Positions 3,001 through 4,564 of a stretch of 4,564 nucleotides of DNA are shown here, piece after piece. Origin of the DNA: a virus (Duplodnaviria; Heunggongvirae; Uroviricota; Caudoviricetes); IMG/VR virus record IMGVR_UViG_2541047123_000044, one strand, 5' to 3'. The position numbers are program-made. The first letter of the stretch is position 1. The number at the start of each line of letters is the position of its first letter.

Positions 3001-4564
3001 GTCGGGGGATTGGCGGATGACGTGATACTCACCGCAAACAGTCGTTTCAGGAACACATCGTTCATGAACAACTGATTCCCCTGCGCCACAAATAACGGCG
3101 TGGTGTTGCCGTCCTCCGGGTTAATCATCGCAATACGGTCAGCCAGCAGCAGTATGTTGCTCAGGGGCTGGCCATCAGTATCCTCAATCCCCGCTCCAAT
3201 ACCGGCAACATAGGGTATGCCATTTTTTGTTTTCTGTACCTTCAGCATGTAAAGTGCAGCAAGGTCATCATTTGTGTCCTTCTGCACGCGCTGTATCTGC
3301 TGTATGGTGGCGCTCTGGTTCTCCAGCGTTTTACTGACCGTCTGTGTGATTTCATTGCGGGTTTCCGTGATGGTGGTCTTCATCTCCGCCATCTCATCCG
3401 CAAGCTGGCTGTTGTCTATCAGCTCCCATAGCCCCTGAGCCAGATGCAGTTTTCCTATTTTTTCCCGGAAAATTCCAGATACCCTTCACCATCATTGCTG
3501 GGCTGCCCGCTGACTTCCACAAACGCAGATTTCCCCACCAGGTTGACGCTGCGCACGTAAAACCAGAAATCCGTCCCCGGCTTAATCCGGCTTCCCTGGA
3601 CAGTCCACTGACTGCCGCTCCCCAGATAACGGGCAGATTTTTCCACCTGTGCCGTGTTCGTGATGCGTTTTTCCGAAAACCAGAACTCAAACTGCACCGT
3701 CGGGTCATACACCGCCAGCACCGGTACCGCCGTTATCTGAAAATACCCCGGCGTCAGTTCAATGGTGGCGGGTTTTGCTGGCGCGTTAATCCGGAAGGTG
3801 GTGATGGCCGGTTCCCCCTGCTGGCCATAACTGTTAATTGCCCTGACTGTCAGGGTGTATTCCCCGAGCGGCAGACCACTGAAACGATGCTCTGTATCCG
3901 CAGTGATGGCGGTGGTCACCAGACGGCTGTCCTGACCGCTTCCACTGGTCAGGCGCAGACTGAAGCGCACGCCCTTCACCACCCGCGGCGTGTCCCATTT
4001 CGCCTGCGCCAGATACTGGCTGTCAGCTGCACTCACCTCCACCGTCAGGTGCTGCACTGCCGGAGGGATGACGCTGTTCAGGGTGCCGCTCTGGTCGCCG
4101 TCAAAGTGCGCCCCGTTATCCACGATGGCTTCTTTTTCCGGTACGTGCTGCACTGCCGTGATGGCAAAGGTGCCGTCCGTGTTTTCCCGGATGGAGACAC
4201 AGCGGAACAGGCGACGACGCAGTGACGGCAGGGAGAGCCCCCACACACCGTATGTCTCCACGCCATCCGGCAGGGTGCTGACCTGTATCCGGTCCGGCGC
4301 GGGGTGTGCAGTGATGGCCACGCTCACCGGCTTACCGCTGCCGTTAATCAGGTTCACCGTGGCGGCACCGGTCTCCGGCAGGGTCACCTCACGGTCCAGT
4401 GTCAGGGTGCGGCTGGCGGCATCGATGGACAGGATACGTCCGCCGGTCATGGTCCCGGCATAGTCGTTATCACAGATTTCAATAATGTCACCGGGTGTGT
4501 GACGCAGCCCCTGAGACCCGAGCGTGAAATCCACCGTCTGCGTTTCCAGCAGTCCGGTCTTTAT

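Follow-up and report, generated by a model that had tools for sequence, protein, structure and literature searches.

In phage lambda the protein gpJ forms the tail tip, or central tail fibre, and carries host specificity. Members of the gpJ family are recognized by the Pfam series FNIII-A, Phage-tail_3, Ig_J, Ig_J_second, Phage_Tail_Tip and Ig_GpJ_C. The lambda gene order J-lom-tail fibre is also found in prophage Sp14 of Escherichia coli O157:H7 Sakai, where the chromosomal neighbours yedYZ-zinT-yodB are followed by espJ-tccP-tail fibre-lom-J. Loss of one base from a short homopolymer (CCC->CC at nt 1108) divides Sp14 J into ECs_2719 and ECs_2720. The tape-measure gene of Sakai Sp14 (14216-16794 of the fetched locus) is annotated as two overlapping CDSs, ECs_2725 and ECs_2726, which is more evidence of decay of the tail module. 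Sp14 and Sp4 have been described as defective prophages that interact or recombine (PMC2669165). A frame change beside a lysine-codon A run, as found in the locus described here, is also a feature of programmed -1 frameshift sites such as those of dnaX (A AAA AAG) and of lambda G/GT (G GGA AAG).

The window, which is the whole stretch of 4,564 nucleotides that was analysed (IMG/VR virus record IMGVR_UViG_2541047123_000044), has a reverse complement identical to the terminal 4,564 nt of the 420,819-nt contig AVQR01000026.1. This contig belongs to the draft assembly GCA_000461935.2 of E. coli 09BKT076207, a strain of the O157 lineage. Every gene of the window lies on the minus strand, in the order J, lom, tail fibre, tail-fibre C-domain and hairpin when read from position 4564 down. 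The features are the following:

3455..4564, minus strand: J fragment 1, residues ~452-817 of the 1159-aa J followed by out-of-frame SGKK and a stop (ORF list, Pfam, tblastn frame -1)
3469..3472, minus strand: site of the 1-nt loss, T4 on the coding strand against T5 in all relatives (alignments)
3458..3463, minus strand: A6 run of the coding strand, the same as in intact alleles, where it is read GAA AAA ATA
3455..3457, minus strand: TAG stop, in frame only through the upstream T loss and out of frame in all intact alleles
2760..3473, minus strand: J fragment 2, central tail-fibre domain in the shifted frame, closed by a stop that the next lesion creates (Pfam Phage_Tail_Tip; tblastn frame -3)
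2806..2831, minus strand: second lesion cluster, G1->G2, C5->C4 and C3->C4, net +1
2733..2734, minus strand: third frame change, TT->T, window GATTGTATTCC against relatives GATTGTTATTCC
2442..2723, minus strand: J fragment 3, C-terminal receptor-binding domain (Pfam Ig_GpJ_C; ORF list)
1775..2374, minus strand: homologue of lom, interrupted by a private nonsense codon (2287-2289)
397..1710, minus strand: tail-fibre gene, intact, 437 aa, the exact protein being present in many O157:H7 genomes
126..395, minus strand: tail-fibre C-terminal-domain gene, intact, 89 aa (ORF list)
85-107, after the tail-fibre genes: terminator-like hairpin CCGGAG TCCGG CTCCGG, then T6

The contig end at 4564 cuts J inside the Phage-tail_3 domain; the first ~451 codons of the gene are absent from the window and the position of the Sakai Sp14 frameshift (nt 1108) lies upstream of the part covered. 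The J pieces match the end of Phage-tail_3, Ig_J, Ig_J_second, Phage_Tail_Tip and Ig_GpJ_C above the curated Pfam cut-offs, while the N-terminal domains of the series are beyond the contig end. Residues 452-817 are 65% identical to lambda J and the C-terminal third is 41% identical, and J, lom, the tail fibre and the tail-fibre C domain follow each other as in lambda and in Sakai Sp14. Unlike lambda J, the gene of the window lacks its 5' part and is in three pieces: instead of one continuous reading frame it has three frame changes, at 3469-3472, 2806-2831 and 2733/2734, and in-frame stops at 3455 and 2760. The source record labels one of the J pieces 'fibronectin type III family protein'.

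Three observations concern the genes beside J. The tail-fibre gene has 37 unbroken collagen-like G-X-Y triplets at 628-960, and its exact 437-aa protein is also encoded by another O157:H7 prophage, next to genes for a D-alanyl-D-alanine carboxypeptidase (Peptidase_S11) and of the nleG family. The A run just before the hairpin (85-112) is A5 in the window and in DEC5B and A4 in six other aligned loci, including CEC01302 and LSU61, which marks the difference as a polymorphism shared between loci rather than a private one. Beyond the window, at 4565-4993 of the fetched locus whose first 4,564 nt are the window, the draft contig has tccP as an ORF of 142 aa. In close complete genomes the gene is partial, at 723 nt, and in Sakai it measures 1,014 nt; its proline-rich repeat region either varies or has collapsed.

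After the truncated tccP come espJ, yodB, zinT, msrQ, msrP and hiuH, a flank with 99.8-99.9% identity to those of CEC01302, O157:H7 LSU61 and O55:H7 DEC5B; its layout and chromosomal position are those of prophage Sp14 in Sakai. Judged by these neighbours, the prophage of the window is of the Sp14/CP-933U type, i.e. the espJ-tccP prophage adjoining yodB-zinT. The orthologous J, at the same chromosomal position, is intact in CEC01302 and carries independent, different disabling lesions in Sakai, in LSU61 (annotated as frameshifted, with three private single-base insertions) and in DEC5B (annotated internal stop). Of the seven close J loci that were fetched, four have a pseudogene annotation. 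Real decay of the Sp14-type J is common; the gene has been broken repeatedly in the orthologous defective prophage and a broken J here is therefore unremarkable. The LSU61 insertions align to window positions 3975, 3171 and 2965, in a genome classified as 'complete', and the question of a real lesion versus a polishing error arises there likewise.

At the junction between J fragments 1 and 2 the coding strand reads GGG TAT CTG GAA TTT TCC GGG AAA AAA TAG. A sequence-only reading of the window had reported a J-like frame ending at a stop (3457..3455) that directly follows an A6 run (plus-strand T6, 3458-3463) and lies close to a T4 run (plus-strand A4, 3469-3472), and these coordinates are exact on direct reading. 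The ORF 3455..4534 (minus strand) terminates in GYLEFSGKK. J homology goes on one frame over, and the frame after the junction is open to the stop at 2760, over 237 codons counted from 3473 or 210 from the ATG at 3392. In the frameshift-aware alignment (tblastn) with the intact 1159-aa J of strain CEC01302, frame -1 (4564-3458) accounts for residues 452-820 and frame -3 (3473-2457) for residues 816-1155; a short third segment, residues 1007-1059, returns to frame -1 (2881-2729). Lambda gpJ places the junction identically, with an identity of 65% before and 41% after it. In terms of Pfam domains, the second Ig-like domain (residues 715-817) ends at the junction, and both the central fibre domain (872-999) and the receptor-binding domain (1036-1159) lie downstream of it.

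Comparison with other J alleles locates the missing base. All intact alleles aligned carry GGAATTTTTCCGGGAAAAAATAGG, that is T5, CCGGG and A6, where the window has T4; none shares its run length. These alleles have both the A6 run and the TAG as well, read there as GAA AAA ATA GGA, and addition of one T to the T run of the window gives a protein identical to intact J across the junction. The sequence-only reading had allowed the extra nucleotide to be in either run. Since A6 is present in every intact allele, the missing base is placed in the T run, and the loss of an A from the A6 run is ruled out. The same reading was right to regard the site as a one-nucleotide homopolymer loss, by mutation or by miscall, and to treat the immediate stop as its automatic result, the same TAG being out of frame in all intact alleles. 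The T4 version has no exact match among the 3,631 matching places found with a 71-nt junction query in 5,426 complete E. coli genomes, the best matches being all 71/72 with one gap. A pattern permitting either T4 or T5 gave T5 in 63 of 63 IMG/VR viral contigs, and T4 in none. A scan of the GTDB species representatives for the junction pattern found neither form. Taken from these alignments, the lost base belongs to the T5 run of J and the J frame is interrupted by a non-programmed loss of one T from that run.

The junction is one of several lesions. At 2806-2831 the window has AAAGGCTTTCCCCGGGATTCCCCGTG and its relatives AAAGCTTTCCCCCGGGATTCCCGTG, an alignment with three homopolymer-length changes packed into 26 nt (G1->G2, C5->C4 and C3->C4, net +1), and the TT->T loss at 2733/2734 follows 78 nt further on. 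The +G/-C pair within 2806-2831 is frame-neutral, with Ala->Gly as sole change. Between the +C and the -T, 26 codons are read out of frame and include two stops, of which that at 2760 comes first; the TT->T loss brings reading back to the frame of fragment 2 only after these stops. The lesion cluster at 2806-2831 has no exact match among complete E. coli genomes, and none of the window's lesions, the TT->T loss included, turns up in the 5,426 of them, with one exception. UTME-4 alone shares the C5->C4 change, acquired independently, and its J is annotated as frameshifted. In lom, codon 29 (2287-2289) is TAA instead of TCA, a private nonsense codon found in none of 6,321 matching places in complete genomes, which leaves an ORF of 147 aa from an internal GTG. 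The same 147-aa lom ORF occurs in three other assemblies behind different upstream lesions, and the 93-aa J ORF likewise occurs elsewhere behind different lesions. The 210-aa ORF made by the lesions was found by exact look-up in one record only, ERB77440.1 on AVQR01000026.1, and the look-up brought up no second assembly of the strain. The lesions at 2806-2831 and 2733/2734, the stop at 2760 and the contig end at 4564 are not reported in the sequence-only reading.

Most of the window follows CEC01302. The two are nearly identical over most of J down to 3307, bar six sites at 4435-4361, and again from ~2171 to 154. The segment 3306-2201, which takes in the C-terminal third of J together with the first part of lom, is a different allele of the Sp4 type, and in this the window also departs from Sakai Sp14, whose J has T5 at the present site. 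This 1.1-kb segment is 99.5% identical to Sp4 J/lom of Sakai, EDL933 and many others, an allele with 257 complete-genome records at >= 99% identity. Within it, the lesions are the only differences from the Sp4-type alleles compared. The mosaic results either from gene conversion between prophages or from chimeric assembly of paralogous copies.

The distribution of private sequence was established by an alignment-free scan of 17-mers over 11.8 kb of the source contig against all fetched relatives. Private sequence is found at five lesion sites only: 3468-3473, 2827, 2809-2812, 2732-2735 and 2289. Positions 1625-1627 are flagged as well, by a new combination (recombinant) of known SNPs without any new base. 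The five or six private events are confined to 1,185 nt, <= 2.3 kb from the contig end, and consist of four or five homopolymer-length indels and a single substitution; no private change is a silent substitution. The adjacent 7.3 kb, comprising tccP/espJ and chromosome backbone, have no private variant of any kind. All five lesion sites are at or within one column of differences between paralogous alleles, against a background of 39%, a coincidence that is only suggestive as gap placement in homopolymers is arbitrary.

These data make it marginally better than an even chance that the loss of T and the four other private lesions are a local consensus error of the draft assembly, a technical cause that we infer, and between technical and real origin we lean to the former because the private changes, almost all of them indels, cluster within 1.2 kb near the contig end. 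The J/lom region is multi-copy and close to the contig end, where reads from the Sp4-type and Sp14-type paralogs would be hard to separate, and mixed reads from the two could have produced local errors of the consensus, T4 and the other private lesions among them. In mutation-accumulation studies of E. coli substitutions are reported to exceed indels roughly ten to one, and neutral decay should be dominated by substitutions. Ordinary neutral decay should moreover spread lesions over the whole defective prophage, and a local consensus problem accounts more simply for what is seen. As in the homopolymer consensus errors of draft or long-read assemblies, all five J indels are run-length changes, present in one assembly only and in a repeated region near a contig end.

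Several facts count against an artefact. The source contig differs from typical assemblies with consensus errors in that its unique sequence is free of errors over 7.3 kb, which indicates that base calling was generally good; an assembly that is error-prone throughout is rejected on the same 7.3 kb without private variants. Short-read assemblies rarely produce indels in runs of 2 to 5 bases. One of the lesions is a nonsense substitution and no homopolymer error, and finished genomes hold a real single-base homopolymer loss in the same gene, that of Sakai. No sequencing platform for the source assembly was found in the literature, the announcement of 228 STEC genomes by the CDC (CDC 228-STEC) being without its accession.

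A genuine, strain-specific slipped-strand mutation in the unselected J gene of a defective Sp14-type prophage is a serious competitor to the consensus error, with a probability somewhat short of even. The clean backbone sequence speaks for it, as do the independent disruptions of orthologous J in Sakai, LSU61 and DEC5B, the pseudogene annotation of four of the seven close loci and the independent C5->C4 change of UTME-4. The window is also a genuine-looking mosaic of Sp14-type and Sp4-type sequence, and both prophages have been described as defective, with interaction or recombination between them (PMC2669165). Clustering of the lesions would then reflect a tract recombined from Sp4-type J/lom, possibly with error-prone repair or gene-conversion synthesis. 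This explanation has to accommodate five or six private events in 1.2 kb and none in the other 10.6 kb, on a private branch that is otherwise of zero length, and a set of lesions that is nearly all indels without silent substitutions, unlike ordinary neutral decay. UTME-4 C5->C4 excepted, the lesions are also without a match in any other assembly. Of much lower probability is the more specific proposal that the five private lesions are real and arose in one burst of error-prone synthesis during Sp4-type to Sp14-type gene conversion of J/lom; if true, the locus would be a naturally occurring case of clustered frameshift mutagenesis associated with recombination between resident prophages. It is still less likely that a truncated J, with hub and Ig domains and no fibre, is retained and extended by occasional -1 slippage at G-AAA-AAA-UAG.

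Functional recoding is very improbable. It would require either a -1 slip of the ribosome on G-AAA-AAA while UAG occupies the A site, or an extra base put into A6 or T4 by RNA polymerase, and would yield a longer J in useful amount. The site has some of the expected properties: P-site tRNA-Lys re-pairs perfectly one base back on AAA AAA, a stop codon after the slip site favours such slips, and a -1 slip would restore the J frame with three altered residues (EFSGKKIGKL). The lysine-codon A run beside the frame change is shared with dnaX and lambda G/GT; the heptamer in the zero frame, the conservation, the stimulatory structure and the intact downstream frame of those sites are not. The zero frame TCC GGG AAA AAA TAG is without a canonical X XXY YYZ heptamer; the sole candidate, G AAA AAA, does not fit that motif and would permit a single P-site slip only. 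The 80 nt downstream fold at -19.3 kcal/mol (z = -0.47), no better than shuffled sequences. The two-frame arrangement is not conserved, T4 being absent from the 3,631 genomic places and the 63 viral contigs. Runs of 4 and 6 bases, as T4 and A6 are here, are below the lengths that give appreciable transcriptional slippage, typically 8-9 or more. The extension itself is not intact: once restored, the frame is interrupted anew at 2806-2831 and 2733/2734 and meets the stop at 2760. Because of these downstream frame breaks and the stop, a single slip at A6-TAG could not yield full-length J, and the suggestion in the sequence-only reading that slippage might give a small amount of full-length product does not hold for the window. 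Even a perfect -1 slip would add <= ~237 residues, ending before the receptor-binding domain. Programmed recoding at the J junction is effectively excluded.

That the T run is a phase-variable contingency tract switching J on and off is the least probable of the explanations, for although the lesion is a homopolymer-length change, the tract is of 5 nt only, all the exact-pattern matches examined, 63 IMG/VR contigs and 75 fetched loci in total, have T5 without variation, and the 3,631 genomic places include no T4 copy. We reject both phase variation and programmed frameshifting, T4 being not conserved and T5 invariant in the other copies examined.

The J lesion is of an ordinary kind, either a broken gene or a flaw of local assembly, in a prophage known to be defective, and its significance beyond annotation is little. 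For annotation, the three pieces of J should not be entered as separate genes; the locus is better described as one frameshifted pseudogene, or as possibly an assembly error. The case illustrates that a lysine run and a stop beside a frame change do not by themselves point to recoding. Should the lesions be real, the O55:H7/O157:H7 lineage would have another independent inactivation of Sp14 J, consistent with an effector-carrying prophage that is fixed in its chromosomal place and can produce no infectious particles of its own.
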